Under the pieces are notes generated by a model, which worked only from the letters and a program-made list of their open reading frames with translations, was not told the origin of the DNA and did not search any database. The translations under genes were made by a program, and so were the position numbers. From the NCBI GenBank assembly GCA_035291665.1, contig DATDRP010000006.1, positions 9,786 through 73,785 on the forward strand: a stretch of DNA of 64,000 bases. Reading direction: 5' to 3'. The DNA is from Patescibacteria group bacterium. Its GTDB lineage: Bacteria; Patescibacteriota; Microgenomatia; UBA8517. Shown piece after piece: positions 14,008 to 60,795 of the stretch; position 1 is the first letter of the stretch, and the number at the start of each line of letters is the position of its first letter.

Positions 14008-15408
14008 TCATAACTTGTTACGCGTTACTTGTTTCGTATCACTTTTTTCATTTCGTATATACCATACAAACTTCAGGTTTCCCAAATCTTTAACTTCCTG
14101 CTCCCGGAATTCGGGAAGCGTGATTTCACTTAATGGACCGCTTGTCGTAACTCCCACCCGGTTAACATCAGGAGGAATATTCCTGACAATATCTTTTTCT
14201 TCCATTAACGCCGTCCCGACATAAAAAGGAAGTTCTACATTTCCCGGAACATAAATTGGCGAATCAAAACCATAGAACTTTGTTTCCCAAAGGTGGTGAG
14301 CCGATCCGTTCCAGTTTATTAAAAAATCATTTACTTTTCTGGTTTGAGAAACATAAACTCCCAGCTCCTTAAACGGAAGCTTTGCAGGATGAAAAAAGTA
14401 GTTAAGGTCAATAACAATAAACAGAAGCAGTGTTGCAAGGAAGGGGAATATAGAAAGCTTACTTCTGGATGAAGCTAAAATAATTCCTACTGCAGGAATG
14501 GTATACAAAAGATACCGGTTATAAAAAATTGAAGTAAATTTTTGTGAAATCAGCCAAGCCAGAATAATCGGTCCCAAAAACCACATCAGAAGGAGTATTG
14601 TTTTTTCTATTGACTTCCACCAACGCCTCACCAGAAGCGTGGCAAAAACAGTATAAAGGGCAATCTGAAAGAGTGGATATTCAGTCAAAGGCAATTTAAG
14701 CTTGTCGTTTCGGATTCCCTGTGCAAGATAATCGTAAATTATTGTTCGAAGGTCTCCCGGAGTTGGCGTGCCGAGCCAGAAACCGCCTTTTACCATGGTT
14801 ACTTGTCTATAAAGAGGCATCAGCCAGGGGATATAAAGTAAAGCAATAATAATAAACGCCTTAAAAACCATCTTCGAGGTTTTTCTTTTCCCGAAAAAAA
14901 ATTCCTTAAGAAACCACAGTCCTTGGATAATTACTGCAAAAAATGCAAAGTGGTGCGAATAGATCGCCCAAAGGGTGAAGAAAACGTAACCAAGAAAATT
15001 TACCCAAGGTTTTCCTTTCAGGGAGTATATTCGTATGAAAAAATACATGGAAGCGGTAACCCCGAGTGCCATGATTGAGTACATTCGCCCCTCAAAGGCA
15101 TAAATGAAAAAGAAGGGGTTGAAGAATGTGATAAGCGCAGCAAATAAACCTGTTTTTTTACTCCAAATTAATGACCCAATGAGATATACAAATAGTATAG
15201 CCAAAAGGTAATACAAAAACACCAACCCGCGAATTACTATTTCACTAGTACCAAAATATTGAAATGCCAAGTGTTCCGTAATGTTAAAAAGTGGGGGCGA
15301 GGTATCCCGGGAAATTATTTCAATAATCTCAAGGATAGGCTTCATCGAAAGAACCGCCGAAAACCCTTCATCACCCCAAATGGATTGTGTAAAGACAGTA
15401 TCTATCAT
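14008..15408 (-). CDS. GT-C fold glycosyltransferase, family 39/83 (PMT/ArnT)-like, paralog
   Basis: 466 aa, polytopic, with IWGDEGFSAV...DTSPPLF in the N-terminal loop. Confidence 0.55.
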   Translation of the reverse strand: MIDTVFTQSIWGDEGFSAVLSMKPILEIIEIISRDTSPPLFNITEHLAFQYFGTSEIVIRGLVFLYYLLAILFVYLIGSLIWSKKTGLFAALITFFNPFFFIYAFEGRMYSIMALGVTASMYFFIRIYSLKGKPWVNFLGYVFFTLWAIYSHHFAFFAVIIQGLWFLKEFFFGKRKTSKMVFKAFIIIALLYIPWLMPLYRQVTMVKGGFWLGTPTPGDLRTIIYDYLAQGIRNDKLKLPLTEYPLFQIALYTVFATLLVRRWWKSIEKTILLLMWFLGPIILAWLISQKFTSIFYNRYLLYTIPAVGIILASSRSKLSIFPFLATLLLFIVIDLNYFFHPAKLPFKELGVYVSQTRKVNDFLINWNGSAHHLWETKFYGFDSPIYVPGNVELPFYVGTALMEEKDIVRNIPPDVNRVGVTTSGPLSEITLPEFREQEVKDLGNLKFVWYIRNEKSDTKQVTRNKL

Positions 15409-31334: not shown

Positions 31335-31490
31335 TTATACTTTGGAATATCTGTCCTTACTGTAAAAGTCATCCACCATTCCACCGTTTTTCAACAGCTC
31401 ATTGTAAGCTTTAAAATCTTCGGAAAATTTCTTAAGATTTTTTTTCGACTCTTTGTATATTATTTTGATTTCGTAAATTATATTTTTCAT
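31335..31490 (-). CDS. small ORF (51 aa, MKNIIYEIKIIYKESKKNLKKFSEDFKAYNELLKNGGMVDDFYSKDRYSKV), unannotated by the track
   Basis: ATG at 31490 is preceded 9 nt upstream by AAGGAGGTGAT, a perfect Shine-Dalgarno. It is followed by the hairpin agcttgtt-ttta-acaagct. Confidence 0.35.
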   Translation of the reverse strand: MKNIIYEIKIIYKESKKNLKKFSEDFKAYNELLKNGGMVDDFYSKDRYSKV

Positions 31491-31675
31491 AATGATTTAT
31501 ATCACCTCCTTTATAATTGTTAACTTTATCTGATCCAATAAAACCGGAGGATCCCTTCCGAATGCAAATCTCAAATGCTTGTTTGATAAGATAGAGAAAA
31601 ACATTACCCCGTATAAATAATACTAAGTTAACAAAGTAACGGATTCAGTAAGTTAAATGACGCCGATATGGTTGA

Positions 31676-36630: not shown

Positions 36631-37728
36631 CTACTTCGTGGCTGAAGTGGTAATTATCTTGTGCTTACGGATCAGATAAAAAAGGATAATTACAGAAATA
36701 ATGTAGTGTGAAGATAAGATAGCGGTAAATATATTAATTTTTTCTTGATGCAAAAACGGGAATTCAATCCACCAAAAAAGATAAGCAGATATAAGAAAAA
36801 TCCTACCCGCAATAGACTTGCCAACCTTTTTGAATACTACGACAAAAACAGGAAATAGAGCAGCAAAATAGTGTTGCCATGCAATAGGCGAAAGGATTAT
36901 GGACGCCAGGATCCCCAGCAAAACATTCCCGGATTTATATATAAGAAATATGATTACCAGAAACAAGATGATATAAATTGATGTTGAGAACTCCCCCACC
37001 CCCAAAACATTTAGTCTTGCCGGAATCGATTGATTGTAATAATCCGTGCTTTCACTTTTTGAAATTTTTGGGAGCAAGTTATTCTGAATATTTCTGATGT
37101 AGTAAGAATAAAAAGAAGGTTTAACGACAGGAAACAAAATTACAATAAGAAAGACAGAAGTAATAACGGTTTTAAAAACCAATTTAATATTACTTTTTAC
37201 AAAAGATACTAAGGCGATAAGGTAATTAGTTTTTATAATTGTTGCTAAGCTAAGAATAATATTCAAATATTTATTTTTTGGATAACAGATTAATAAAGCT
37301 AGTAAGCATCCGATGACTAAATTCGGCTGTCCAATTTCGATTGAAAACCTGATTGGAAAGCTTGAGAAAAAAACCATAAACATTATTAAAAAAGCTAAAA
37401 GCCTATTTTTTGGAAATAATTTACTCGATAAGATAACCAGAGTTAATATACCGAATGATATGTTTATTATGCTAAAAACACTTCTGGCAATCGTTAGCGG
37501 TAGGAATGAAAAAGGATAAAAAAATATATATACTGATGGCGGACCGAGTGAAGTCATATAATTTACCGTATAAGGATTAACACCCAATTTGATGTCATTT
37601 GTAAGTCTAAAGTAAGTATCAAAATCCAATAGTGTATTTTTCCCTAACACAATTGGTAAAAAGTGTCTTAATTTTATAAGAAGTACGCTGTTAAGTACGA
37701 GAAGAGTCCAAAACAAAATCTTTTTCAT
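36631..37728 (-). CDS. polytopic membrane protein, possible GT-C type glycosyltransferase (DUF2029/GT87-like)
   Basis: 365 aa with about 10 TM and no soluble domain. The assignment is by topology only. Confidence 0.3.
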   Translation of the reverse strand: MKKILFWTLLVLNSVLLIKLRHFLPIVLGKNTLLDFDTYFRLTNDIKLGVNPYTVNYMTSLGPPSVYIFFYPFSFLPLTIARSVFSIINISFGILTLVILSSKLFPKNRLLAFLIMFMVFFSSFPIRFSIEIGQPNLVIGCLLALLICYPKNKYLNIILSLATIIKTNYLIALVSFVKSNIKLVFKTVITSVFLIVILFPVVKPSFYSYYIRNIQNNLLPKISKSESTDYYNQSIPARLNVLGVGEFSTSIYIILFLVIIFLIYKSGNVLLGILASIILSPIAWQHYFAALFPVFVVVFKKVGKSIAGRIFLISAYLFWWIEFPFLHQEKINIFTAILSSHYIISVIILFYLIRKHKIITTSATK

Positions 37729-38677: not shown

Positions 38678-39634
38678 ATGGAAAATTACCTTTTAATAGC
38701 AATATTAATTGTGGGTTTTGGACTGGTTATTTATTTTATTAATAAAAAACTTACCGAACTTGCTGAAAAACAAAAACCCTCGAGTGACCTACTGGAGTAT
38801 CTGAGAAGTACAAATACACGTCTTGACCAGCAGGGTCAGGCATTCAACCAGAGGCTTGATAACGCTGCGAAAGTGATCGGCGATGTGCAGAAAAACATAG
38901 GCGAGATGAGTGAAATCGGCCGTGGCATGAAGGAGCTGCAGGAATTTTTGAAAAGCCCAAAACTTAGGGGAAATATCGGGGAGCAGGTTCTCAACGAACT
39001 ATTAACGCAAATGCTACCCAAAGCTTCGTTCAATCTTCAATACACTTTCAGGTCAGGTGATAAAGTTGACGCAGCAATAAAAACATCGGCAGGCATCATC
39101 CCAGTTGACTCTAAATTTCCAATGGAGAACTACAGAAAACAGGCGGCCAGTAAGAGTGACGAGGAACGATTACATGCACTACGGGATTTTGAAAGCGATG
39201 TCAAAAAACACGTTGACGATATTAGCAGGAAATATATCCTAACCAACGAGGGGACAATCGATTATGCTCTTATGTATGTCCCAAGCGAAGCGGTTTATTA
39301 TGAAATAGTAAACAATCCCAAGCTTTTTGAATATGCAGGAGGCAAACGCGTACTCCCCGTCTCCCCCACTACTTTTTATGCATATCTGAAAGCAATTTTA
39401 ATGAGCTTTGAAGGTCAAAAAATTGAAAGTCAGGCAAAAGAAATTTTGGCGAGTCTCCGGGCAGTCCAGAAAGACTATGAAAAAGTAAGCGGAAGTTTGG
39501 ATGTTTTACAAAAACATATGACGAATGCTTATAACATGATGGGAAATGTTGTGAATGTTTTTTCGCAACTGGGACAAAAAATATCTTCAGCCAGATCGCT
39601 TTCTCCTAGCAAAAAAGATGAGATAGAGGTTTGA
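38678..39634 (+). CDS. rmuC: DNA recombination protein RmuC
   Basis: N-terminal TM, long coiled coil, and the RmuC core (NIGEQVLNELLTQMLP...VDAAIKTSAGIIPVDSKFPMENY...LMYVPSEAVYYE). The start is set at Met 38678 (MENYLLIAIL) because the track ORF start at 38492 overlaps the upstream minus-strand gene. Confidence 0.8.
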   Translation: MENYLLIAILIVGFGLVIYFINKKLTELAEKQKPSSDLLEYLRSTNTRLDQQGQAFNQRLDNAAKVIGDVQKNIGEMSEIGRGMKELQEFLKSPKLRGNIGEQVLNELLTQMLPKASFNLQYTFRSGDKVDAAIKTSAGIIPVDSKFPMENYRKQAASKSDEERLHALRDFESDVKKHVDDISRKYILTNEGTIDYALMYVPSEAVYYEIVNNPKLFEYAGGKRVLPVSPTTFYAYLKAILMSFEGQKIESQAKEILASLRAVQKDYEKVSGSLDVLQKHMTNAYNMMGNVVNVFSQLGQKISSARSLSPSKKDEIEV

Positions 39635-39783
39635 GACCCATTGGATTTGACGTGTTCAACATTCTTCTTTAATCTATTAGATAGATTCAATATAGAATGT
39701 TTGGAATTATACTAATTGGGAATAGGAGTTTGTTTAGAAATTAGTAATTAGATATTAGAAATTTTCCGAAAGGAGGTGAGATT

Positions 39784-40350
39784 ATGCTATCAAAAGTAGT
39801 TGAAGAGATTTCAGATACAATTACGGCAGCAATTAAGGGAGCTGATGACATTTTAACTTCGCTTCGAACAGCAGTCAAAAATCAAGTTGGCGGTTCTTTG
39901 AAAGATGTTGGAGAACTAACAGGTACAACAATGGGTGTTGTTTCCGATACCGTTGCGGCGGCTCTTAAAAGCGCATCAACGATGGGAACTTCGGTTGTAG
40001 ACGCAACGAAACAGGCAGTAATGGGAGCGGTTAGTGCAGTTGCAGATGCGGGAGGAAGTGTTGTTGATGCTGTTAATACCTCAGTATCAGGAGCTGTAAA
40101 AGCTGCAGGTGATGTCGGAGGTGATGTTGGTAAAATAGCTGTATCAGCTGTAGAAGGAGCGATTGATTCTGTTGGAAAGCTTGGAAAAGACACATCTGAA
40201 GCAGCTGGAGCTGCAGTTATGTCTGCACTTAAAGCTGCGGAAGGAATCGGGGATGAATCAGCAAGGACTGTTCGTCAAGCATTAATGTCTGCAGCATCTC
40301 TTCCAAGGGATGTTGTTGAAAGAGTATTGAAGGGAAGCAAAGACGCGTAA
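39784..40350 (+). CDS. Ala/Gly/Val-rich tandem-repeat protein (about 22-residue VVDAxxxxVxGAVxAxxDxGGx units), unknown function
   Basis: 188 aa with AAGGAGGTGAG 5 nt upstream of ATG. Repeats read directly: VVSDTVAAALKSASTMGTS / VVDATKQAVMGAVSAVADAGGS / VVDAVNTSVSGAVKAAGDVGGD / VGKIAVSAVEGAIDSVGKLGKD. Confidence 0.55.
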   Translation: MLSKVVEEISDTITAAIKGADDILTSLRTAVKNQVGGSLKDVGELTGTTMGVVSDTVAAALKSASTMGTSVVDATKQAVMGAVSAVADAGGSVVDAVNTSVSGAVKAAGDVGGDVGKIAVSAVEGAIDSVGKLGKDTSEAAGAAVMSALKAAEGIGDESARTVRQALMSAASLPRDVVERVLKGSKDA

Positions 40351-41067: not shown

Positions 41068-44000
41068 ATGGTTTGTTTAAAGCAATTGTATATAAATTAC
41101 CGACTCGATTCTAGAGAAAATAAAGTTGTCCAGCAAAAATTCCGTGTGAATTTACTTCTTTCTTTTATTTTCGCTTTTTTTATGTTCTTAGTTTACCCAA
41201 CTTCAACTTTAGCAACAAACTACTATGTGGATGCTACAAATGGTGATGACAATGATAACGGTACTTCAACCGATACTCCCTGGCAGACGATCAATAAAGT
41301 AAACATTTCGAGTTTCAGTGCAGGGGACCAGATTCTGTTTAAGAAAGGCGAAATATGGAGAGAACAATTGACGGTTCCTTCAAGCGGTACTGCCGGAAAT
41401 CCAATTGTCTTTGGGGCTTACAGTAGCGGGGTAAACCCGATTATTAATGGTTCAGACGTTGTATCTTCATGGACTGCAGACATTGCCAGTTATCAAACAA
41501 CTTTTGATATGGATGGATGGGGTTGCTGGGGTAACTACAGTACGGCTTCAGATGCAAGTGGGGTGACTTATAGGACTTCATTTCTTCAATCTGCTTTTTC
41601 CGGTTCTTCTATAAGAATTACTGTTAAAGCGGCAGCGGGTGGAAGCGTAACAATTGATAATTCTTCAGTGTGCATAGCAAATGGTGGGTGGAATGATTGC
41701 GACTCTACACCTACGAGAATTACATGGGATGGGGGAAATAATAGTGCGACAATTTCAGCAGGAGCTTCCAAAACGAGCGACCCAATTACTTTCTCTTGGA
41801 GCACCTCTAATATTAATGCTGTCAGTGTTTATGTTTCCTCTGGCAGTTTAGTTGGATATTATAGTACCGTTCCTGCTTATCTATATAGATATACCTACAC
41901 TGGGGATGTCGCTTTGAATCAGAATATGTTGGGTGATGAAAATCAGATAAATGATAGCGAGATTTTGAAAGTTGAAACATCTACAGGTTTAGCTAATGTT
42001 TGGAATGCGACGGTTGCAGATACACCAAATCAGGTTTTCAAAGACGGAGTGCTTGCCACAAAAGGAGCCTCCAAGGCCGCTTTAACACAAAGTCAATGGT
42101 ATGCTTCAGGGACAACTCTTTCTTATTATGAAAGTGCCGGTAATCCCGGCAGTCAGGCTTACGCGATAGAAGCTTCTACAAGAGATTATGGAATTTATTT
42201 CAACGGTCAAAATAAGATTACGGTAGATGGATTGACAGTAACAAAAGCCAATTTGTACGGGATAAATATTGGACACGATTCAAGCCACACCTTAGACAAC
42301 GCAATTGTTCAAAATTCACTCGTCCAATACAGTTATGACGCCGGTATTTTTTCTTGGGTCCCAACATCTTTAAACGGGTCTTTGGCAGCAACAATCCTGA
42401 ATAATGAAGTATCTTATAATGCGATCCAAGATGGAATAGACGGCGGAAACGCGCCTACTGGTATAGAAATACTCGGCTCTAACTCAACCGGACCTACGCT
42501 AGTTCAGGGAAATAATATCCACCACAACTATTGGGGAATGGAATTTGACCAGAATTCCGATCATTCGACTGCGCAATACAACAGTATTCACGATAATAAT
42601 AAGATGGGGATGAATATCGACAATTCGGATAACAACACGTTCCAATATAATCTGGTCTATAATCACCCTGTCAGTTGGGGGTTGAGAATATGGGATGCCG
42701 CTGCGAATGGGATGACGGGCAATGTTGTCTATAATAATGTCTTTTATGGCAATTCTATCGGCATCATTGTTGAGAACGAACAAACAAACCTGAAAATAAA
42801 AAATAATATTCTCCTTGCTAACACCGCCAACACAAGTACCAGCGAGATAACCCTTGAAAGTGGCCATACATATACCGGACTTGATATTGACTACAATTCT
42901 TATTATCGTGAATCCGGAACAACTTACTGGAAGTATGGGGCTACAAATTATTCTTTTACGGACTGGAAAACTAATTCAGGTCAAGATGCTAATTCCGTAA
43001 ATTCTGACCCGTTATTTACCGACGCTACCGGATATGATTTTACATTACAATCCGTTTCTCCCGTCATTAATAGTGGAACTGATGTCAGTTTAACAACTGA
43101 TTATGCAGGAACAATCGTACCACAGGGTACTACACCTGACATTGGAGCATATGAATTTTCACTGCCCTCTAGCGCTTCTTCTTTGTTACAGTATCAGTCT
43201 GATGGAACAAGTTCGATTTCCACCGGTGGAAAACTCGGGAGTGGCTCAACCGTTGTCCTTAAATCTAGCATGTCATCTGCCAATAGTTCAGACTCGTTAA
43301 CACCGCAGTTTGAGGTCAGACCGGTTGGAACTGCTTTTTCCAATAGTGCTACCCATTTAGGCAATGCAATTTCATATTCAGGAACTTCTGTTATAGGAAA
43401 CGTCACTGTTTCCGGACTTGGAGCAGGAAATTATCATTGGCAAGCTAGAGTAGATAATCCCGCCGGCCAATCTTCCTGGGTATCATACGGAGGAAATTCG
43501 GAAGATGCAACCGATTTTTCGATTGATTATTCAATTGCTTCTCCAGCACCTTGTAACGATTCTGCTCCCACATCTGCACCCTGGCTTTACGCGGCTACTG
43601 TAAAAGGAAAGGATGCTATTTTACTTCAGTTTACTCAGGCTAAAGACCCAGTTAGTGAATATGTTGTGGAATACGGGGAAGAGTCAGGAAAATATGTATA
43701 CGCCATGGCAGACATAGGCGGAAAAGGCACTACTTCATACACTGTAGGTTATTTACAACCTAACAAAATTTTTTATTTCAGAGTTCGAGCAGGGAACGGG
43801 TGTGCAACAGGTCTTTGGTCAAACGAGATATCAGCTAAAACTCTTTCCGGTTCTTCCACTGCATCTAATGATGAAGGATTAGAAACTGAAATTATTGAAA
43901 CTGAAATTAGGGAAAGAGAAGTAGAGGAAAGTAACGAAGAAATTAAAAAAGAAGAGCAACCGGAAGTTTTGGGGGTTGATGTGAGATTAAAAGTTGTTAA

Positions 44001-44337
44001 CGAAGAAAAAGAACCTATAAAAGGAGCGAAAGTAACACTATATTCAGAACCTAGGGAAGTAACAACAAACAAAGACGGCATTTCATTATTTGAAAATGTA
44101 GAACCAGGAGACCATAAAGTTGTCATTGCCTACAACGGTCAAACCGGAGAACAGAATATAAACATCCAAGATGATTCAGGTATCGAGGAAGTAGATTTTA
44201 CAATTCAGCTTAACACAACCTCCCCTTTTAAAGATTCTAAGGTAATTGCGGTGGTATCTTTCTTGGTTCTGGTGGTAATAGTATTGGTGATACTGTTTGC
44301 AAAAAAATCTTCAAATAAAAAACCTGCCAAGTTATAA
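41068..44337 (+). CDS. large cell-surface protein: signal peptide, right-handed parallel beta-helix (PbH1) repeats, FN3-like domain, acidic linker, CarboxypepD_reg-like domain, C-terminal TM anchor
   Basis: 1089 aa. PbH1-type repeats (NNIHHNYWGMEFDQNSDHSTAQYNSIHDNNKMGMNIDNSDNNTFQYNLVYNH), an FN3-like domain (YVVEYGEESGKYVYAMADIGGKGTTSYTVGYLQPNKIFYFRVRAGN), VTLYSEPREVTTNKDGISLFENVEPGDHKVV, and terminal VIAVVSFLVLVVIVLVILFAKK. Confidence 0.6.
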   Translation: MVCLKQLYINYRLDSRENKVVQQKFRVNLLLSFIFAFFMFLVYPTSTLATNYYVDATNGDDNDNGTSTDTPWQTINKVNISSFSAGDQILFKKGEIWREQLTVPSSGTAGNPIVFGAYSSGVNPIINGSDVVSSWTADIASYQTTFDMDGWGCWGNYSTASDASGVTYRTSFLQSAFSGSSIRITVKAAAGGSVTIDNSSVCIANGGWNDCDSTPTRITWDGGNNSATISAGASKTSDPITFSWSTSNINAVSVYVSSGSLVGYYSTVPAYLYRYTYTGDVALNQNMLGDENQINDSEILKVETSTGLANVWNATVADTPNQVFKDGVLATKGASKAALTQSQWYASGTTLSYYESAGNPGSQAYAIEASTRDYGIYFNGQNKITVDGLTVTKANLYGINIGHDSSHTLDNAIVQNSLVQYSYDAGIFSWVPTSLNGSLAATILNNEVSYNAIQDGIDGGNAPTGIEILGSNSTGPTLVQGNNIHHNYWGMEFDQNSDHSTAQYNSIHDNNKMGMNIDNSDNNTFQYNLVYNHPVSWGLRIWDAAANGMTGNVVYNNVFYGNSIGIIVENEQTNLKIKNNILLANTANTSTSEITLESGHTYTGLDIDYNSYYRESGTTYWKYGATNYSFTDWKTNSGQDANSVNSDPLFTDATGYDFTLQSVSPVINSGTDVSLTTDYAGTIVPQGTTPDIGAYEFSLPSSASSLLQYQSDGTSSISTGGKLGSGSTVVLKSSMSSANSSDSLTPQFEVRPVGTAFSNSATHLGNAISYSGTSVIGNVTVSGLGAGNYHWQARVDNPAGQSSWVSYGGNSEDATDFSIDYSIASPAPCNDSAPTSAPWLYAATVKGKDAILLQFTQAKDPVSEYVVEYGEESGKYVYAMADIGGKGTTSYTVGYLQPNKIFYFRVRAGNGCATGLWSNEISAKTLSGSSTASNDEGLETEIIETEIREREVEESNEEIKKEEQPEVLGVDVRLKVVNEEKEPIKGAKVTLYSEPREVTTNKDGISLFENVEPGDHKVVIAYNGQTGEQNINIQDDSGIEEVDFTIQLNTTSPFKDSKVIAVVSFLVLVVIVLVILFAKKSSNKKPAKL

Positions 44338-51286: not shown

Positions 51287-53314
51287 TTAGCGTACTTTGT
51301 ACACCTTCGTTTGGTTTGATTCAAATTCCAAAGTTGCAATCGGCAGGAACTTTTGTTCATCCAGATTCGGGAATTTTTCTCTTTCGAAAGATCCAACAAT
51401 AACATACCCGACCTTATATTTTTTCAGAAGTGCTTGGGCAATCTTCGGATCATTTGTTGTATAGATGAGAGTGATATCTCCGACTCTTTTTTGAGGGAAC
51501 TCGGAAGACCCCCGCCATAGCCATTCGTGGACAAACCATCCGGAAATTGTCGGATTTCCAGTATATGAAGAAATAACATTATAGTCCGTATAGCTGTCGC
51601 CCGGCGCTTCCAGGATATTTGCTTTGATATTATTATTTTTGAAATAATTTACGGCGTCATATACCCCGGGAAATTGATTTTTCAGCCAAAGGGTTCCGTC
51701 CAATCCCTGGTAGAATTTCAGACCGTTATAGTATGACTTTATTGCGACTTGTGCGTATGAAACGATTGAATAAAGAACGATAACCCAAAAGATTAGAAAA
51801 AACTTTTTTATGTATGATTCTTTCGCCAAAGATAGTTGTCTGGCAATAATAAATCCTGCTGATAGGTAAAACATAACATACGCCTGATAAGTAAGCTTAA
51901 ACATCGTATTGGCACGGTAATGGGTGGCGGCGTAAATATCTTTTAGATAAATTATTTCCGGAAGGGCAATCAGAGTCCACGATGAGAGCAGCAAACCCAA
52001 AATAAATATATCTGTTACGGTTACTTTTTCCCGCAGCTTCAAAATAACAGTTACGAAAATTGTTGTGAGAATTGCAGGAAAACCCCAAAGAATGATTAAT
52101 TGCCAGAAGGGAGTATGGGAATGGACAAGATTAATCCCCTGAGCAATCGATTCAAAATTAATGATAAAAAGGAGTGCGCTGAAAAATAGTATTGAACCGA
52201 TAATTACAAAATCCCTTATTATAAAAAATACAGCTTTAAGTTTAAATTTATTTTTAATGAAATGGATCAGCATCAGGACAAATCCTGTTGTTAACAAATA
52301 GTTACCCACATCCCAAGTACTGGTCATAAACATTATCCCGAGTAAGAATCCCAGACAGGCAAGTTTTTTGAAGTGATTCTTCCTGTTAAGGATTTGATCT
52401 GCAACCAAAAACAAAATTGATAGATACAAAAGTACGTTAGGTAAGTTCATTAAATGTCCGTGAAGGTCTGAAACGACAAATGAATAAATAGGAAACTCAT
52501 GGATTGTTTTATCGTTGGTGTCGGGATTATACCCTATGAATCGCGTTGCATCCGGGTACCAATATTTATCAGCACCGTTTTTCAAAACATAAAAAGGTGT
52601 ATGGAAATTTCCGGCAAAAGTCACAAGAATGGCAGACAGCAGTCCTGCAACAATAAACGTTCGTGTTCTTCCGGCGGGTAGAGAAAATTTAGTAATTGTT
52701 GAAACGAGTGAGAAAACTCCCGAAAGGGAAAGACCCATGATGGTTGCAAGCATCAGGTTGTATGTAATGGCCGAAGGGATTTGCGTAAGCATGGTAAGAA
52801 GTGCAGTGGTGAAATGTCCGAACCAGTAATAATTAATAACCTCTCCGACTGCCCACATATCCGTAGGTGGAAGGAATTTTGTCGTTAACGCAGAGTTAAC
52901 AAATCCGAAATCCATGAACTTTTCCAAACCTCTTATATCCGGTTGATGGGCGCGGACGTATGCCAAAAAAAACAATCCGGCAGTAAAAAGCGCTTCACTA
53001 ATTAACACATATTTTGAGGATTTTCGAACTGTTTTAATTAATTGTTTTTGGTCCTTGGTAAGTATGTAAAGATTTAAAGCTATTGCAACAACCAAAAAAC
53101 CCAAAAGTGAAACTCTTGAAAAACTTAAGACCTTCAATGTCGAAGTTACAAATGTCAGATATGAAAGAAAAAGTATAGAAACCGTTCTTGAAAAAGCCCA
53201 TCCGTAATCCGTAAATTTCTTAAATATCCGGTATGTCAGAGGAAAAAAAATAAGACCAATAATAAGGGTGTATAACCACCAATTAAATGTAATAATAAGG
53301 TCTTGTATGTACAT
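51287..53314 (-). CDS. large polytopic membrane protein (675 aa) with a C-terminal extracytoplasmic domain; possible GT-C/DUF2298-like glycosyltransferase
   Basis: More than 14 TM helices with no catalytic motif recognised. The C-terminal soluble region is about 150 aa. Confidence 0.35.
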   Translation of the reverse strand: MYIQDLIITFNWWLYTLIIGLIFFPLTYRIFKKFTDYGWAFSRTVSILFLSYLTFVTSTLKVLSFSRVSLLGFLVVAIALNLYILTKDQKQLIKTVRKSSKYVLISEALFTAGLFFLAYVRAHQPDIRGLEKFMDFGFVNSALTTKFLPPTDMWAVGEVINYYWFGHFTTALLTMLTQIPSAITYNLMLATIMGLSLSGVFSLVSTITKFSLPAGRTRTFIVAGLLSAILVTFAGNFHTPFYVLKNGADKYWYPDATRFIGYNPDTNDKTIHEFPIYSFVVSDLHGHLMNLPNVLLYLSILFLVADQILNRKNHFKKLACLGFLLGIMFMTSTWDVGNYLLTTGFVLMLIHFIKNKFKLKAVFFIIRDFVIIGSILFFSALLFIINFESIAQGINLVHSHTPFWQLIILWGFPAILTTIFVTVILKLREKVTVTDIFILGLLLSSWTLIALPEIIYLKDIYAATHYRANTMFKLTYQAYVMFYLSAGFIIARQLSLAKESYIKKFFLIFWVIVLYSIVSYAQVAIKSYYNGLKFYQGLDGTLWLKNQFPGVYDAVNYFKNNNIKANILEAPGDSYTDYNVISSYTGNPTISGWFVHEWLWRGSSEFPQKRVGDITLIYTTNDPKIAQALLKKYKVGYVIVGSFEREKFPNLDEQKFLPIATLEFESNQTKVYKVR

Positions 53315-55827: not shown

Positions 55828-57471
55828 TCAGTACTCCGAAGTCGGAATGTCCTTTTTGGCAACCAGATAGTACGCGATATCCATTCTGTTCGGATAGTAA
55901 ATTATTTTTTTAACTTCAAAATTTACCGGATATGTTTCTCCCGGAGTAACTGCAAATAAGGTATTATCTCCGAAAATAAATGTCTGAGAACTGTTAACAA
56001 AGATTGTTTTTGTCGTAGGCGGGTACTTAAAGAAACGAATATACAGATCGGGTAAATACGCAATGTAAGGGGTTACGCCAAGATGGCTATACTTACCGGG
56101 TTCGGATACAAAGTAATTATAAATTTGGCGGAATCCATATTGCCATCCGGAGTAACCGGCTGCGTTGGTATTATATTCATAAGCGAATGATATTTTGATT
56201 TCCTTAAAAGAAAAGCATGCAATGTAAACCAAGATCATTACTGGAATCAGCATCCGAATAGCAATTGTTGAATTGACAGCGTGTTTCAAAATTGAATTGA
56301 TTCCGTATATTATGATGATAAAAATTATCGGGAGAAGTACAACTGATCTGATACTGTCAAATCCCCTGATTGTCAAAGATGCCGGTATAATTCCGACAAC
56401 AAATGAAAAGATTAAAAGAAAATAAAAAGCTCTATTTTTACCCTTATTAGTGACAACCCCTTTAAGAATTGAGAGAATTCCCAGAATAATGAACGGAATG
56501 GTGTAACGCGGCAACAGTGATGTTCCCCAGATGCTATGTCTATAAACCGGAAAGTCAGGTGGTAAATAATTGTTGACAAAATAATTTCTAATCGAAAAGT
56601 GGCTGGCGATATTTTTTATAAAACAGTAGGTTATGCTTTTACATTGTGTCAGTTCGTCTGCCCGGTATAAAAAACTTCCCTCAATGAAGAGTTTTATCGA
56701 AGGCAGAAGGGTGAAGATCGCGAGAACGCTGAAAATAAGAAAATATTTAGGCAGCAAGGTTTTTAAACTACGATACTTTATAAGCGAATAAAAAAGAAAA
56801 TATATTAAGAACGCAAGCGCGAAAAGTCTTCCCGGTACATAAGCCCAATATAAAAAACTGAGTATCAGAGAAAAAACAAAACACTTGAGGTTCGACGGTT
56901 CCTTGGGATCTGAGAAAATCCTATTTATGTAAAAAACACTCAATAAAAAAATAAAGCAGACGAGGATTGTATCCATCGCAAATCTTGATACCAAAAACGC
57001 CCAAGAAGTTGACGGCCATATGAGAATACCCAAAAAAATACTATTTAATAAAACTCGTTTTTTCAGAAGTTTATATAAAAGGATGACTATTAAAAGTGAA
57101 ATACAAACACTCGCAAGTCTGACGGAAAATTCGTTTAATCCGAATATAGTCACGAAAGGTATCAGAAGATAAGTGTATATTGAATGGTTGCGCATGGTTT
57201 CTCCCGGGTTTTGAAAAGTAAAAGGTAAAAATTCATGATTTGATGAAAATCCTTTTGTCGTAATTATTGAATAAGCTTCATATCCATATATAGACTCATC
57301 GATGAAAAATCCCGGTGGGTTTTTGTCCAACCGGTAGGTCAGTATCAGGAAAAGGTAAAAGAAAATAAATCCGAGAATTATTTTGTTTGGGTGTTTGAAA
57401 AATTCAGTGAGCTTTATTTGCAGGGCGATATTATATTTCCGATGTATTGAGTCTGAAAAAAATTTTCTCAT
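55828..57471 (-). CDS. GT-C fold glycosyltransferase, family 39/83 (PMT/ArnT)-like, tandem paralog 1
   Basis: 547 aa, polytopic, with NPPGFFIDESIYGYEAYSI (DE loop motif) after TM1. Confidence 0.55.
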   Translation of the reverse strand: MRKFFSDSIHRKYNIALQIKLTEFFKHPNKIILGFIFFYLFLILTYRLDKNPPGFFIDESIYGYEAYSIITTKGFSSNHEFLPFTFQNPGETMRNHSIYTYLLIPFVTIFGLNEFSVRLASVCISLLIVILLYKLLKKRVLLNSIFLGILIWPSTSWAFLVSRFAMDTILVCFIFLLSVFYINRIFSDPKEPSNLKCFVFSLILSFLYWAYVPGRLFALAFLIYFLFYSLIKYRSLKTLLPKYFLIFSVLAIFTLLPSIKLFIEGSFLYRADELTQCKSITYCFIKNIASHFSIRNYFVNNYLPPDFPVYRHSIWGTSLLPRYTIPFIILGILSILKGVVTNKGKNRAFYFLLIFSFVVGIIPASLTIRGFDSIRSVVLLPIIFIIIIYGINSILKHAVNSTIAIRMLIPVMILVYIACFSFKEIKISFAYEYNTNAAGYSGWQYGFRQIYNYFVSEPGKYSHLGVTPYIAYLPDLYIRFFKYPPTTKTIFVNSSQTFIFGDNTLFAVTPGETYPVNFEVKKIIYYPNRMDIAYYLVAKKDIPTSEY

Positions 57472-59192
57472 TTTATTCTTTTGTAGATAATGACTTTCGG
57501 ATGGTCATAGACTGTAAATGCTTCTTCGGACCGGTCGTCAGGAATAGGTATGTTAACAAACGGAATAGTAGGATAGGAGGTAATTTCTGCCACTTTAATA
57601 AATTGAAGTTTTCCGTTAAAAAGATCATTGTAAAATTTTGAAGTGATAGGATATTTTTCCGGAACTTTCGGTATTGATCCCCACAGACGGTTTGAAGAAA
57701 GGATCAAATAATCGATACTTTTAAGCTGAGAATTTATTTTTTCCCATTTTTCCCGCGACTCCGGATTAAAAAGTTCGAGCGTCTCGGTTTTATATTTTTG
57801 AGCATAATTGGTTACGTTTAATGTTAATGGCAGGCAATCGTCCCAATATTCACAGGAAACCGTTGAACCTTCAGGAATATATTTGTAGATCCAAGCTGAT
57901 GCGGAAACCCTTGAGTGGGGGCGGCTGTAAATCTGCACGAATGACAAGGGCCAGACAAGAAGAAGTAAGTAGTAGGCAGTAAGCAGCAGGTAATTATTTT
58001 TCATTAATGGGAAAAGGTGTTTTATAGAAAAATATGCGATCACAATTGCATATAGCGGATACGCGGGGTAAAAATACCTCATACTTGGGGCGGATTGGAT
58101 ACTTTGATATCCGGTTAAAATAGTTATTGATGAAATTAAAAGAAATATCTGCAATTCCTCAATGCTTAAAGTTTTTAAATTGTTAATGGAGAATTTTCGC
58201 CTGAAAATTTTTGCTAGTTTTTTTAGAATACCCATTGATAAATACACAAACCCCCCAGTAAGCAATAGTGTTTGAGGTATTCCGATACCCCAAATAAATA
58301 TATTTTTCAGAGAGAAGAAAACAGGATTTATTTTTATCCACTGAACGTTCGGAGGAAAATATGTATCCGGATCGCTGAAATTTTGAAGCTGTTTTAAGTT
58401 GTTTAAAAAATTTAGATTAATTTTTGGAACAAATAAATTGTTTGAGAAGACGTGGGGATCAAGAAATCGGTATGCCAAATATGCAATAATCGCTGTAAGC
58501 AGTAAGCAGGACACTGTAAGTGAGAACTTCTTCTGTTTAGTTAAATGAATCAAATACCCCAATAAGACAATTGGAACAAAAAGGATTGCGGAAACCTTAC
58601 AGGCAAATGCTGCCCCCAGCGATAATCCGGTTAAAGCTGGATAAATTATATTTTTTGATTTTACGGTTTTCAATAAAAAGAAGAGTGAAAGAGTCATAAA
58701 GAAGGTTAGCGGCGGATCGACGGTGAAGAAATGAGAAAGTTGTATTGGAAGAACTAAAGTTGCATATACAAACGCGGATAGTAAAGCGGTCTTTTCATTA
58801 AAAATTAAATTTGATATCTTGTAGACGAGAAATAAAACTCCGACATCAAACAAAACGGATAAAAGCCTTCCTGTCAGGGCGATATTATTATAGCTGTAAT
58901 TATCGAGTATCAATATTTGCGACAACCGCTTATTAATAGTTGTCGGTAGGGTTCCGTATACAAAAAAATCGTACCCCTGATTATTAGGGTTTAATGTTGA
59001 AATTGAAGGATTAAGATAAGATGATAAATTATTTGGCCAATATAAAGCACCCACAACCATTGTTAAAAATCTTTCGTCAGGATGAAGATGCTGATTTTGA
59101 TCCCAGTTTAAACCAACAATCCGTAAGGTTAAGGAAAAAATTATGATTACCAACAACAGGAATTTGTTAGACAGTTTTATTAAGGATTTCAT
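57468..59192 (-). CDS. GT-C fold glycosyltransferase, family 39/83 (PMT/ArnT)-like, tandem paralog 2
   Basis: 574 aa. HLHPDERFLTMVVGALYW loop motif; the C-terminal tail EEAFTVYDHPKVIIYKR is shared with paralog 3. Confidence 0.55.
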   Translation of the reverse strand: MKSLIKLSNKFLLLVIIIFSLTLRIVGLNWDQNQHLHPDERFLTMVVGALYWPNNLSSYLNPSISTLNPNNQGYDFFVYGTLPTTINKRLSQILILDNYSYNNIALTGRLLSVLFDVGVLFLVYKISNLIFNEKTALLSAFVYATLVLPIQLSHFFTVDPPLTFFMTLSLFFLLKTVKSKNIIYPALTGLSLGAAFACKVSAILFVPIVLLGYLIHLTKQKKFSLTVSCLLLTAIIAYLAYRFLDPHVFSNNLFVPKINLNFLNNLKQLQNFSDPDTYFPPNVQWIKINPVFFSLKNIFIWGIGIPQTLLLTGGFVYLSMGILKKLAKIFRRKFSINNLKTLSIEELQIFLLISSITILTGYQSIQSAPSMRYFYPAYPLYAIVIAYFSIKHLFPLMKNNYLLLTAYYLLLLVWPLSFVQIYSRPHSRVSASAWIYKYIPEGSTVSCEYWDDCLPLTLNVTNYAQKYKTETLELFNPESREKWEKINSQLKSIDYLILSSNRLWGSIPKVPEKYPITSKFYNDLFNGKLQFIKVAEITSYPTIPFVNIPIPDDRSEEAFTVYDHPKVIIYKRIK

Positions 59193-60795
59193 ATAATTGC
59201 TGTTCAGGCATACCTACGGTCTTTTTGTATATTGTGACAACCGGATGGTCAAAAACAGTGAACGTTTCTTCCGAATTTACCTCATCATTATAGAATAGAT
59301 TAAAAGAACCGATTTTTAGTTCCGGAAATGAAGATAGACTGGCAACTTTATTAAAACCGAGTTCACCCGAGAATAATTTCTTGTAAAAATTAGCTACATG
59401 GGGGAAGTTTTCTTTATTGTGATTAAGATATACCCGCCTGCTTTGAATGATAAAATAATCAGCTTTTGACAATTCCCCAGAAAGTTTTGAGATATTAACT
59501 CCACTTTCTTCAAGGTTGTAAAAATCAAACGTGTTTTTGTAATAATTTCCTGCAAGCGGGACTTCTAAAGTATTAGCCCCTTCTGTAAGGATAGATGAAT
59601 TTTCAGGTATATTTTCGTTTATCCAAGACGTTGCCTGAACGCGGACATCACTTTTTAGATAGATTCCAAAAAACATAAATGCCCAAATGATTGTTGGGAA
59701 AAAATATAAGATAGCAAAAGGCAACAACACTCCATTTTTTAATTTGCTTCTTACAGCAAAATATGCCCAAACAGAAAAGACAACAATCAAAGGAAATGCC
59801 GGATTTATAAATCGGGTCCATTTTGCAAAAAGGAATGAATTAGGGAAAAATAAAATTGCAAAATACGAAAGAACGATAATAAGAATTCTTTCTTTTGCTG
59901 GATTTTTTAGGATCATGAATGTTGCCAAGAGAAATCCAATGATAAAAAATATAAGAACAGTAGGACCAACCGTAAATGGAAGGATTTTTGTCAGTTGAAA
60001 TAATAGTGGTTTTGTATTTTCGAAAGACCTTGTGTAAAAAACCGGTAAGCTGCCCGTTGCCACTCCGCTCTCATAAGAAATTACTCCGGAAAAATTTTGA
60101 AAATCCAAAATACTGTATGGAAAACTGATGAAAAATGTGATGAACATACTGACAAAAAAGACAACCGTATCCAGCAATTTTTTAAGTAAACCAAGTCTCT
60201 CGGAAATAATAAATACAAATATTAAAGGGAAAAGGGTGAGGCCTGTTATTTTGGTACCGGTTGCAAAACCCAAACAAGCTCCAGCCGCCGCGAGATGATA
60301 AATTGATTTTGACTCACAAAAACTCAAATAAAAGAATAAGGTTGTTAGTAAAAAAAACGTTAATGTTGACTCTGGCGTCAGAAAATGTGCTTGCTGAATT
60401 GCTCCCGGGATCGTGGCCATAACAAACGCCGTTGCCAGGGCTAACATCTTTTTTTTGAAAAGCTTTTTCGACACAAGATATACGATTGGTATGGTGAGAG
60501 TCGAAAACAAAGCACTATAAAATCTTCCTATAATAAAGGGGCTTATTTGTGATAGGTGCGGAAGCGTTAAAACGAGAATTTTTTGGGTTGCATAAATAAG
60601 ATAAACAATAAAAGATCCGTAGGAAAAAAGTTGAGGATTGAGATTTTGAGAACTTAATCGGGAAACTGCGATGACGATGTGATATTCATCAGGATGGAAG
60701 TAATACCCCTGACCCCAGTTTAATTTATAAAAGCGTAAAAATCCTCCAAGCAATATTATTGCGATTAATAAAAATATTCGGGTGATTTTTTTCAT
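59167..60795 (-). CDS. GT-C fold glycosyltransferase, family 39/83 (PMT/ArnT)-like, tandem paralog 3
   Basis: 542 aa. FHPDEYHIVIAVSRL loop motif; C-terminal EETFTVFDHPVVTIYKK. Confidence 0.55.
   Translation of the reverse strand: MKKITRIFLLIAIILLGGFLRFYKLNWGQGYYFHPDEYHIVIAVSRLSSQNLNPQLFSYGSFIVYLIYATQKILVLTLPHLSQISPFIIGRFYSALFSTLTIPIVYLVSKKLFKKKMLALATAFVMATIPGAIQQAHFLTPESTLTFFLLTTLFFYLSFCESKSIYHLAAAGACLGFATGTKITGLTLFPLIFVFIISERLGLLKKLLDTVVFFVSMFITFFISFPYSILDFQNFSGVISYESGVATGSLPVFYTRSFENTKPLLFQLTKILPFTVGPTVLIFFIIGFLLATFMILKNPAKERILIIVLSYFAILFFPNSFLFAKWTRFINPAFPLIVVFSVWAYFAVRSKLKNGVLLPFAILYFFPTIIWAFMFFGIYLKSDVRVQATSWINENIPENSSILTEGANTLEVPLAGNYYKNTFDFYNLEESGVNISKLSGELSKADYFIIQSRRVYLNHNKENFPHVANFYKKLFSGELGFNKVASLSSFPELKIGSFNLFYNDEVNSEETFTVFDHPVVTIYKKTVGMPEQQLYEILNKTV

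Follow-up and report, generated by a model that had tools for sequence, protein, structure and literature searches.

What role does a candidate phyla radiation (CPR) bacterium assign to a small, highly repetitive protein whose gene begins behind a perfect Shine-Dalgarno (SD) sequence? This question is raised by the coding sequence at positions 39784-40350 (+) of a 64,000-nucleotide stretch of DNA, referred to here as the window, from a Patescibacteria group bacterium (contig DATDRP010000006.1 of GenBank assembly GCA_035291665.1). A preliminary description, made from the sequence without database searches, had compared the 188-residue product with phasin, late embryogenesis abundant (LEA) and apolipoprotein-like proteins. 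Our results indicate that it is a helical-repeat protein of an undescribed family, that it is predicted to fold as a solenoid of helical hairpins, and that it may well be highly translated. As to its role, we tentatively favor the binding or coating of a surface.

The reading frame opens with the ATG at 39784, which is the first start codon past the upstream stop codon, and closes with the TAA at 40348-40350. Its annotation as a coding sequence is based on the list of open reading frames (ORFs), the homologues, the AlphaFold2 model, and the lowest GC content at third codon positions (GC3) in the window. The protein contains 17.6% Ala, 14.9% Val, 11.7% Gly, 10.6% Ser and 8% Asp, and no Cys, Phe, His, Trp or Tyr at all; its pI is 4.8 and its grand average of hydropathy (GRAVY) is +0.29. 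Since Cys, His and the aromatic residues are missing, the protein possesses no catalytic-type residues. These counts agree with the earlier statement that the protein is rich in Ala, Gly and Val and free of Cys. The further statement that it has no transmembrane (TM) segment is also confirmed, as the highest 19-residue Kyte-Doolittle mean was 1.38. No paralogue was found within the window.

The protein is built of eight tandem 22-residue helix-turn repeats covering residues 6-181 (39799-40326, +), as seen in its self-similarity, in register tables and in the AlphaFold2 model. When the protein was compared with itself using BLOSUM62, the offsets of 22 and 44 residues stood out clearly against 500 shuffles (z = 9.25 and 8.3, respectively), and the eight units could be aligned without a gap. 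In the 22-residue unit, positions 1, 4, 8, 11, 12, 15, 18 and 22 are apolar, positions 3, 7, 10 and 14 are occupied by small residues, and positions 19-21 form a Gly-rich turn; about 36% of the repeat positions are strongly hydrophobic. Tandem Repeats Finder detected no repeat inside the coding DNA of the gene, meaning that the repeats are old and visible in the protein alone. The hydropathy power spectrum showed a single sharp peak at 98 degrees, that is, 3.67 residues per turn (z = 39), which is the sixth harmonic of the 22-mer. Each helix has an apolar or small face of about 180 degrees consisting of Val, Ile, Leu, Ala and Gly, and the other half consists of Asp, Glu, Lys, Ser and Thr. The degenerate repeats of about 22 residues and the amphipathic character that had been noticed by eye are thus both substantiated by the self-comparison and the periodicity analysis.

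The structure of the protein was predicted by AlphaFold2 with an alignment of 54 sequences. The model had a mean predicted local distance difference test score (pLDDT) of 94.4 and a predicted TM-score (pTM) of 0.90, and showed nine helices, each 13-20 residues long. Of the eight connections between them, seven are turns of 3-5 residues, mostly Gly-rich, at the boundaries of the repeats. When the prediction was run with the single sequence, the pLDDT was 53.5 and the pTM 0.28, and some helices continued through the turns. Because the confidence collapses without the alignment, it rests on evolutionary information and not on an idealized sequence. A Foldseek search with the AlphaFold2 model, which the preliminary description had suggested, gave TM-scores of 0.71-0.75 to designs of the DHR4 type, and the best natural protein reached a TM-score of only 0.44. 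The matched designs were DHR4 (PDB 5cwb), DHR7 (5cwd) and the DHR-based 7mwr_B, 8cwy_A and 9drl_A. The predicted fold is therefore a two-layer solenoid of helical hairpins that would have no natural counterpart among solved structures. In the prediction the helix-turn units are stacked into an elongated non-globular array, as is characteristic of alpha-solenoids, and the HEAT, ARM, TPR, ANK, PPR and Sel1 profiles of Pfam matched neither the protein nor any of 29 close relatives.

We then asked to which family the protein belongs. No significant match was obtained in Pfam, NCBIfam, PADLOC or the natural PDB sequences, as the preliminary description had anticipated when it found no evident known family; the sole PDB sequences matched were de novo designed helical repeat proteins. 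A search of the literature found no publication on the family. Word-indexed searches returned just 3, 6 and 15 matches, their index being saturated by low-complexity words. An exhaustive phmmer search returned 223 cluster representatives at E <= 1e-3, including 35 at E <= 1e-10, and the representatives align collinearly across a core of about 180 residues. We also scanned metagenomes with a hand-made degenerate DNA pattern for the C-terminal motif A-L-x-x-A-A-S-L-P-R-D-x-x-E. The scan gave 52 metagenomic loci, 50 of which were true relatives as judged from the family profile (E 1e-10 to 1e-56). These 50 collapse to 33 unique sequences, the nearest of which is 53% identical to the window protein. 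Exactly 188 residues were counted in 17 of the 33, and most of the others have 184-193; one short form of the subfamily has exactly 44 residues fewer, which corresponds to two repeats or one hairpin.

The subfamily alignments revealed a conserved motif near each terminus. The N-terminal one, L27-R-x-A-V-K-N-Q34 (39862-39885, +), includes K32 and Q34, which are invariant in the CPR subfamily. The C-terminal one, R164-x-A-L-x-x-A-A-S-L-P-R-D-V-x-E179 (40273-40320, +), includes the invariant residues A166, L167, A170, A171, L173, P174, R175, D176 and E179. The invariant turn glycines include G19, G112 and G134. Among close pairs the median dN/dS was 0.57, which is fairly high and noisy. The gene was also found on contigs of four further samples, two of them JGI samples whose contigs are named in the Rifle style, that are 99.9-100% identical to the window. 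Distant members occur in Saccharibacteria, Desulfobaccales, Dehalococcoidia and Verrucomicrobia. The Dehalococcoidia member (contig L009, 7710-8813) has 367 residues with several near-identical 44-residue two-helix repeats, and looks like a recent repeat expansion in units of a hairpin.

From the composition alone, one might suspect that the ORF is spurious, because it is of low complexity and is overlapped by an antisense ORF of 103 residues. However, full-length collinear homologues with conserved terminal motifs exist in at least five phyla, the SD sequence is perfectly placed, and the identical protein is present on contigs of several independent samples. The homologue set effectively refutes the idea of a composition artefact, which we regard as next to impossible; as far as comparison of sequences can tell, the collinear homologues in several phyla establish the gene as real. 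The antisense ORF itself (39882-40193, -) is rich in Thr, Ser, Pro and Ala; in all likelihood it is no gene and just mirrors the GCN/GGN/GTN-rich sense frame.

The next question is how strongly the gene is expressed. The sequence AAGGAGGTGA at 39770-39779 (+) lies 4 nt 5' of the ATG, with its GGAGG core 7 nt from the ATG, and is a perfect 10-nt complement of the canonical 3' end of 16S rRNA. The perfect SD sequence reported in the preliminary description was thus real, but its spacing is not the 5 nt given there, and the 11th base, a G, is non-complementary. For 60 window genes, we scanned the 22 nt that precede the start, as it was first called, for anti-SD matches, and the present gene was the only one of the 60 with a match longer than 5 nt. 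The start of the Hsp20 small heat-shock gene (8546-8953, -; 135 residues; PF00011, E = 1.9e-12) had first been called too far upstream, the ORF list running on to a GTG at 9022. Correction of its start to the true ATG at 8953 revealed a second perfect SD sequence, the same AAGGAGGTGA, at 8959-8968. The perfect 10-mer has three copies in the 64-kb window against 0.18 expected, and all three lie 4-11 nt before an ATG, namely those of the present gene, Hsp20 and an ORF of 51 residues. On the other hand, the best SD match is at most 5 nt in most window genes, and in 14 genes a -10-like (TATAAT-like) hexamer ends 6-9 nt before the start codon, which is the leaderless pattern. For these reasons, initiation in the host CPR genome seems to be mainly leaderless or SD-independent; the genes at 5488, 17385, 22885, 26289, 28690, 38678, 40792 (-) and 44405 are examples of SD-poor or leaderless starts.

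Other signals were also considered. The GC3 of the gene is 0.217, the lowest of the 60 window genes (mean 0.341, z = -2.8), and GCC, GTG, CTG and CTC codons are not used at all. The 86-nt leader folds no better than shuffled sequences (z = +0.7), and the SD sequence is unpaired. On the same grounds an RNA thermometer or riboswitch in the leader was ruled out, and an Rfam scan of the window yielded one tRNA and nothing else. A purine-rich SD sequence is kept upstream of nearly all subfamily members, and at the subfamily loci the long SD matches before ORFs of at least 40 residues mostly belong to the gene of this family. From the rare perfect SD sequence, its unpaired state, the low GC3 and its retention in the subfamily, we infer that the gene is highly translated and belongs to a small SD-led class of which a classical stress protein is also a member. 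The earlier claim of strong translation is to this extent plausible.

We next looked at the surroundings of the gene and of its relatives. In the window it stands alone, 149 nt 3' of RmuC and convergent with an ASCH-domain gene that ends 7 nt downstream; past the ASCH gene lie a large beta-helix surface protein and an AddA-like helicase. Neighbor clustering of about 50 relative loci gave no universal operon partner and only synteny at the level of lineages. In about 10 CPR loci the order is dnaG, rpoD, a GT87-like membrane protein, the family gene, an RRM protein on the opposite strand and an LCP protein, and RmuC lies upstream of the family gene in four loci.

In the wider family, several members are fused to other regions. 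P0027 is fused to an HMA_2 domain and a hydrophobic, TM-like region, P0039 continues into a Cation_ATPase_N domain, some members are fused to TM segments, and several have basic tails rich in Lys, Arg, Ala and Pro. Fusions to receiver domains also exist, one of them inside a GlgE/TreS-Mak/GlgB cluster. Among other members, one adjoins genes for an ECF sigma factor, a PRC-barrel protein and entericidin; one adjoins entericidin, MlaED, TrkHA, BON and DUF5670 genes; one contains a pair of TM-like hydrophobic segments, with an HSP20 gene 7 kb off; and the 367-residue Dehalococcoidia member sits between gltB and groEL. In Desulfobaccales and a related deltaproteobacterial metagenome-assembled genome, a member of 225 residues precedes, at a distance of 35 nt, a P-type ATPase of 1022 residues. 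In the cluster concerned (contig L006, 4191-11727, and contig L008), the family member and the P-type ATPase are accompanied by a PadR-like regulator, a PhoH/PIN-like ATPase, a small membrane protein rich in Ala, and three small proteins that have an RxRxR-type N-terminal motif, appear HMA_2-like, and share the motif with the N-terminus of the P-type ATPase; the domain assignments in this cluster were made by eye. On the whole, the contexts and fusions of the wider family are varied, with a tilt towards membrane, ion-homeostasis and stress functions.

The protein was then compared with known families. The Pfam scan covered 35 window proteins, among which there was no PHA (polyhydroxyalkanoate) synthase or depolymerase, no photosynthesis gene and no P-type ATPase or HMA_2 gene. 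In the 29 close relatives of the protein, the matches were Phasin_2 (9), Senescence (4), DUF7750 (4), BMFP (3), ApoLp-III (3), Apolipoprotein (2), Perilipin (1) and a few singletons, and every one of them scored below the curated cut-off. In our reading, these weak matches reflect not homology but a physico-chemical convergence on amphipathic proteins of the kind that attach to lipid or granule surfaces. That is, the resemblance to phasins and apolipoproteins proposed in the preliminary description stands as a physico-chemical kinship but not as membership of either family.

Phasins (PF09361, PF05597), like the present protein, are small, Ala-rich, amphipathic and all-helical, have no TM segment and are expected to be abundant. 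However, regular 22-residue units, conserved Gly-Gly turns and a compact fold such as that predicted here do not characterize phasins, and the Phasin profiles did not match the protein up to E 10 and gave 16-20 bits with the relatives against a cut-off of 24.9. PhaF and PhaM have basic tails, which are comparable to the Lys/Ala/Pro tails of some members of the wider family. The exchangeable apolipoproteins and the perilipins, with the 22-mers of ApoA-I and the 11-mers of perilipin, share with the protein the tandem 22-residue (2 x 11) amphipathic helices, the regular breakers and the 11/3 periodicity, and the protein does have the tandem 11/22-residue amphipathic repeats that characterize them. 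The helix bundle of lipid-free ApoLp-III is a closed state analogous to the fold predicted here. On the other side, these families are eukaryotic, and the breakers of the present protein are Gly-Gly instead of Pro, with an apolar face of small residues. PF01442, PF07464 and PF03036 gave no match above the cut-off (Perilipin, 5.9 bits against 33, E = 7.8, for the protein), and the matches of this type among the relatives reached only E 1e-3 to 1e-2.

The chlorosome envelope proteins CsmC/CsmD (PF11098) resemble the protein in size and in composition, and most of their model aligns with it at a sub-threshold score. The CsmC model aligned with the protein over about 75% of its length (12.2 bits, E 0.19, cut-off 26.3), and with the relative P0016 over nearly its full length (23.8 bits, E 5e-5). 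CsmC is reportedly specific to Chlorobia. Its hosts are chlorosome-containing green sulfur bacteria, whereas the present host is a non-phototrophic member of the CPR (Patescibacteria) with typical CPR gene content, and a word-indexed search seeded with P0016 returned unnamed hypothetical proteins only and no CsmC.

As for the Desulfobaccales loci, they resemble the ferrosome (fez) clusters in that a P-type ATPase and small proteins with Arg-rich motifs lie beside a member of a distinct subfamily of this family. The Fez proteins have an Arg-rich N-terminal motif (bioRxiv 10.1101/2020.01.10.902569). The Desulfobaccales ATPase differs in being taken as P2-like, because of a region that looks by eye like Cation_ATPase_N; FezB is of the P1B-6 type. 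We know of no described Fez protein that belongs to the present family. Concerning DUF6781 (PF20572), the protein itself gave no match, and the distant P0154, which the family profile reaches at E = 9e-7, carries this domain.

What, then, does the protein do? We tentatively propose, by analogy and with less than even confidence, that this amphipathic repeat protein is abundant, cytoplasmic and non-enzymatic, that it binds or coats a surface, and that it belongs to a stress or maintenance class of expression. The soluble protein would be a compact stack of helical hairpins, an alpha-solenoid of eight 22-residue units. Present at high copy, it may act stoichiometrically by binding or coating a surface in the manner of phasins or exchangeable apolipoproteins; the surface might be that of the membrane on its cytoplasmic side, or a hydrophobic one exposed by other components. 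The protein would be made as part of the stress or maintenance expression class of the cell. In favor of the proposal are the in-register amphipathic repeats without catalytic-type residues, the predicted fold, the expression signals, the weak matches to families that bind lipid or granule surfaces, and the contexts and fusions of the wider family. Its abundance, its surface binding and its link with stress are inferences, and its cytoplasmic location is deduced solely from the lack of a signal peptide or TM segment.

Several points weigh against this proposal. The opening of the protein onto a surface is pure analogy, because the apolar face is small (Val, Ala, Gly), the Gly-Gly turns are conserved and the fold is predicted to be compact; the Gly-Gly turns, which come every 22 residues, are indeed among the most conserved positions. 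The weak Pfam matches could come from composition alone. In the window, no CIRCE element or stress gene adjoins the gene, whose neighbors are RmuC and the ASCH-domain protein. The contexts of the relatives are heterogeneous, and in the approximately 10 CPR loci mentioned above the gene merely follows dnaG-rpoD. Lastly, the invariant polar ends (K32, Q34, R175, D176 and E179), together with the constant length of 188 residues in 17 of the 33 sequences, fit a specific partner better than generic coating.

The last point leads to the main rival explanation, namely that the protein is a rigid alpha-solenoid adaptor which binds one protein or nucleic-acid partner through its end caps (LRxAVKNQ and SLPRDVxE) and its groove, as HEAT, ARM and TPR proteins do, and coats nothing. 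We consider this possible but rather doubtful. The compact fold, predicted with high confidence that depends on the alignment, and the helical repeat scaffolds found as best structural matches suit such an adaptor, as does the clustering of the invariant polar residues in helix 2 and the last two helices. The fixed length, with a short form lacking exactly 44 residues, points in the same direction; the receiver-domain fusions suggest a regulated interaction module, and the place after dnaG-rpoD is recurrent. However, no conserved neighbor across the subfamily offers itself as the partner, the dN/dS of close pairs is fairly high, although noisy, and a very strong SD sequence with strong codon bias would be unusual for an adaptor needed in low amount. 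In addition, some members of the wider family are membrane-anchored or basic-tailed. Self-assembly into filaments or a lattice of cytoskeletal or shell-like nature, either by head-to-tail solenoids or by coiled coils of 11/3 periodicity, seems improbable to us. In its favor, conservation is highest at the two termini, which bear opposite charges (R28/K32 against D176/E179), the number of repeats varies from the short forms to the 367-residue Dehalococcoidia member, and some helices pass through the turns in the single-sequence prediction; phage tape-measure proteins, which are long helical rods, are also weakly matched. Yet the Gly-Gly turns are conserved, the length is fixed in most subfamily members, and the tape-measure matches are weak (E ~1e-4 to 1e-2) and probably compositional.

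Two further explanations deserve very little credence. An LEA-type hydrophilin, that is, a disordered protectant against desiccation or osmotic stress which becomes helical only on drying, would agree with the 11-residue periodicity, with the stress-type neighbors of some relatives, with the SD sequence shared with Hsp20, and with a Gly content (11.7%) above the 6% expected of hydrophilins. But hydrophilins are strongly hydrophilic, and the GRAVY of +0.29, the strongly hydrophobic repeat positions (about 36%) and the confident prediction of a compact fold are contrary to this. No LEA family of Pfam matched the protein or its 29 close relatives. The LEA resemblance suggested in the preliminary description is thus contradicted by the hydropathy and by the predicted fold (pLDDT 94.4, pTM 0.90). 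It is just as hard to believe that the protein is truly, if remotely, homologous to a known family that coats granules or antennae (the phasins or CsmC/CsmD) and does the same job. The CsmC scores of the protein and of P0016, and the weak Phasin_2 matches in 9 of 29 relatives, could be taken in its favor, but all the scores are below the cut-offs, the search seeded with P0016 brought up no CsmC, the host is a member of Patescibacteria, and neither photosynthesis nor PHA genes occurred among the scanned proteins. Some other candidates were tried and rejected. A phage tape-measure protein was discarded since the PHROG matches are weak (E 3e-4 to 1e-2) and probably compositional, 188 residues are too short, and no phage genes lie nearby. 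A part in a defense system was discarded since PADLOC gave no match, and an origin from a phage, plasmid or other mobile element was discarded since tblastn found no match in phage or plasmid collections and the GC3 is more host-like than average.

The surface-binding proposal can be carried further, into a speculation that we regard as unlikely. The family might be a new natural class of alpha-solenoid, which CPR bacteria make on a translation signal like that of stress proteins as an abundant, reversible amphipathic coat or lipid handler, and a sister subfamily might be the cytoplasmic coat or scaffold of ferrosome-like compartments in Desulfobacterota, which would store metal and be driven by P-type ATPases. 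CPR bacteria are generally considered incapable of synthesizing membrane lipids of their own.

If the prediction is true, Patescibacteria, Desulfobacterota, Chloroflexota and Verrucomicrobiota have an uncatalogued family that is in neither Pfam nor NCBIfam and whose architecture is known in the PDB from de novo designs only. The gene appears to be among the very few CPR genes translated via a strong SD sequence, alongside a small heat-shock protein, and its product is a probable major component of CPR cells. It thus offers a handle on the split between leaderless and SD-led initiation in CPR genomes and, through its relatives, on the non-transporter proteins that accompany ferrosome-like ATPase clusters. 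If its abundance is ordinary and it has one specific partner, it is just another hypothetical repeat protein.

Some further features of the window should be described. Directly 5' of the SD sequence lies a tandem 7-nt repeat, TTAGAAA, with 4.3 copies (39734-39763, +; Tandem Repeats Finder, period 7, 82% matches) and the variants TTAGAAA, TTAGTAA and TTAGATA. It is identical in the same-species contigs L001-L005, and none was seen upstream of the relatives. If the candidate -10 hexamer TATACT at 39708-39713 (+) is used, the leader would be about 60-65 nt long. This assignment is weak, because no complete -35/-10 pair turned up on the + strand near the gene in a generic sigma-70 scan. An extended -10 motif of the TTTGyTAnACT type recurs in the close relatives, 25-110 nt before their start codons. 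There is no convincing intrinsic terminator 3' of the gene.

The Hsp20 gene has a TTGACA/TATTAT promoter and is preceded by a CIRCE-like inverted repeat (9062-9088) with 2 mismatches. Another CIRCE-like inverted repeat, with 3 mismatches (1828-1854), ends 6 nt before the start of groES (1861-2178), which is followed by groEL (2219-3856); groES has no SD sequence and the second-lowest GC3 in the window. The 51-residue ORF with the third perfect SD sequence (31335-31490, -; SD at 31502-31511, 11 nt from the ATG) gave a weak match to DUF4298 (E 5e-4), and a gene of like size is called at that place on contig L001. The RmuC gene upstream of the repeat protein (38678-39634, +) encodes a protein with an N-terminal TM segment; the sole PADLOC match of this RmuC was to the RmuC part of a DRT (reverse-transcriptase-associated) model, with no reverse transcriptase nearby. 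The large surface protein at 41068-44337 (+) has 1089 residues with a right-handed beta-helix, fibronectin III and CarboxypepD_reg domains and a C-terminal hydrophobic anchor, and is probably a CPR cell-surface protein. Finally, the window contains an unusually dense set of membrane glycosyltransferase-like genes of the GT-C, PMT_2, GT87 and DUF2298 types (14008-15408, 36631-37728, 51287-53314 and 57468-60795), pointing to a heavy investment in the glycosylation of the envelope.

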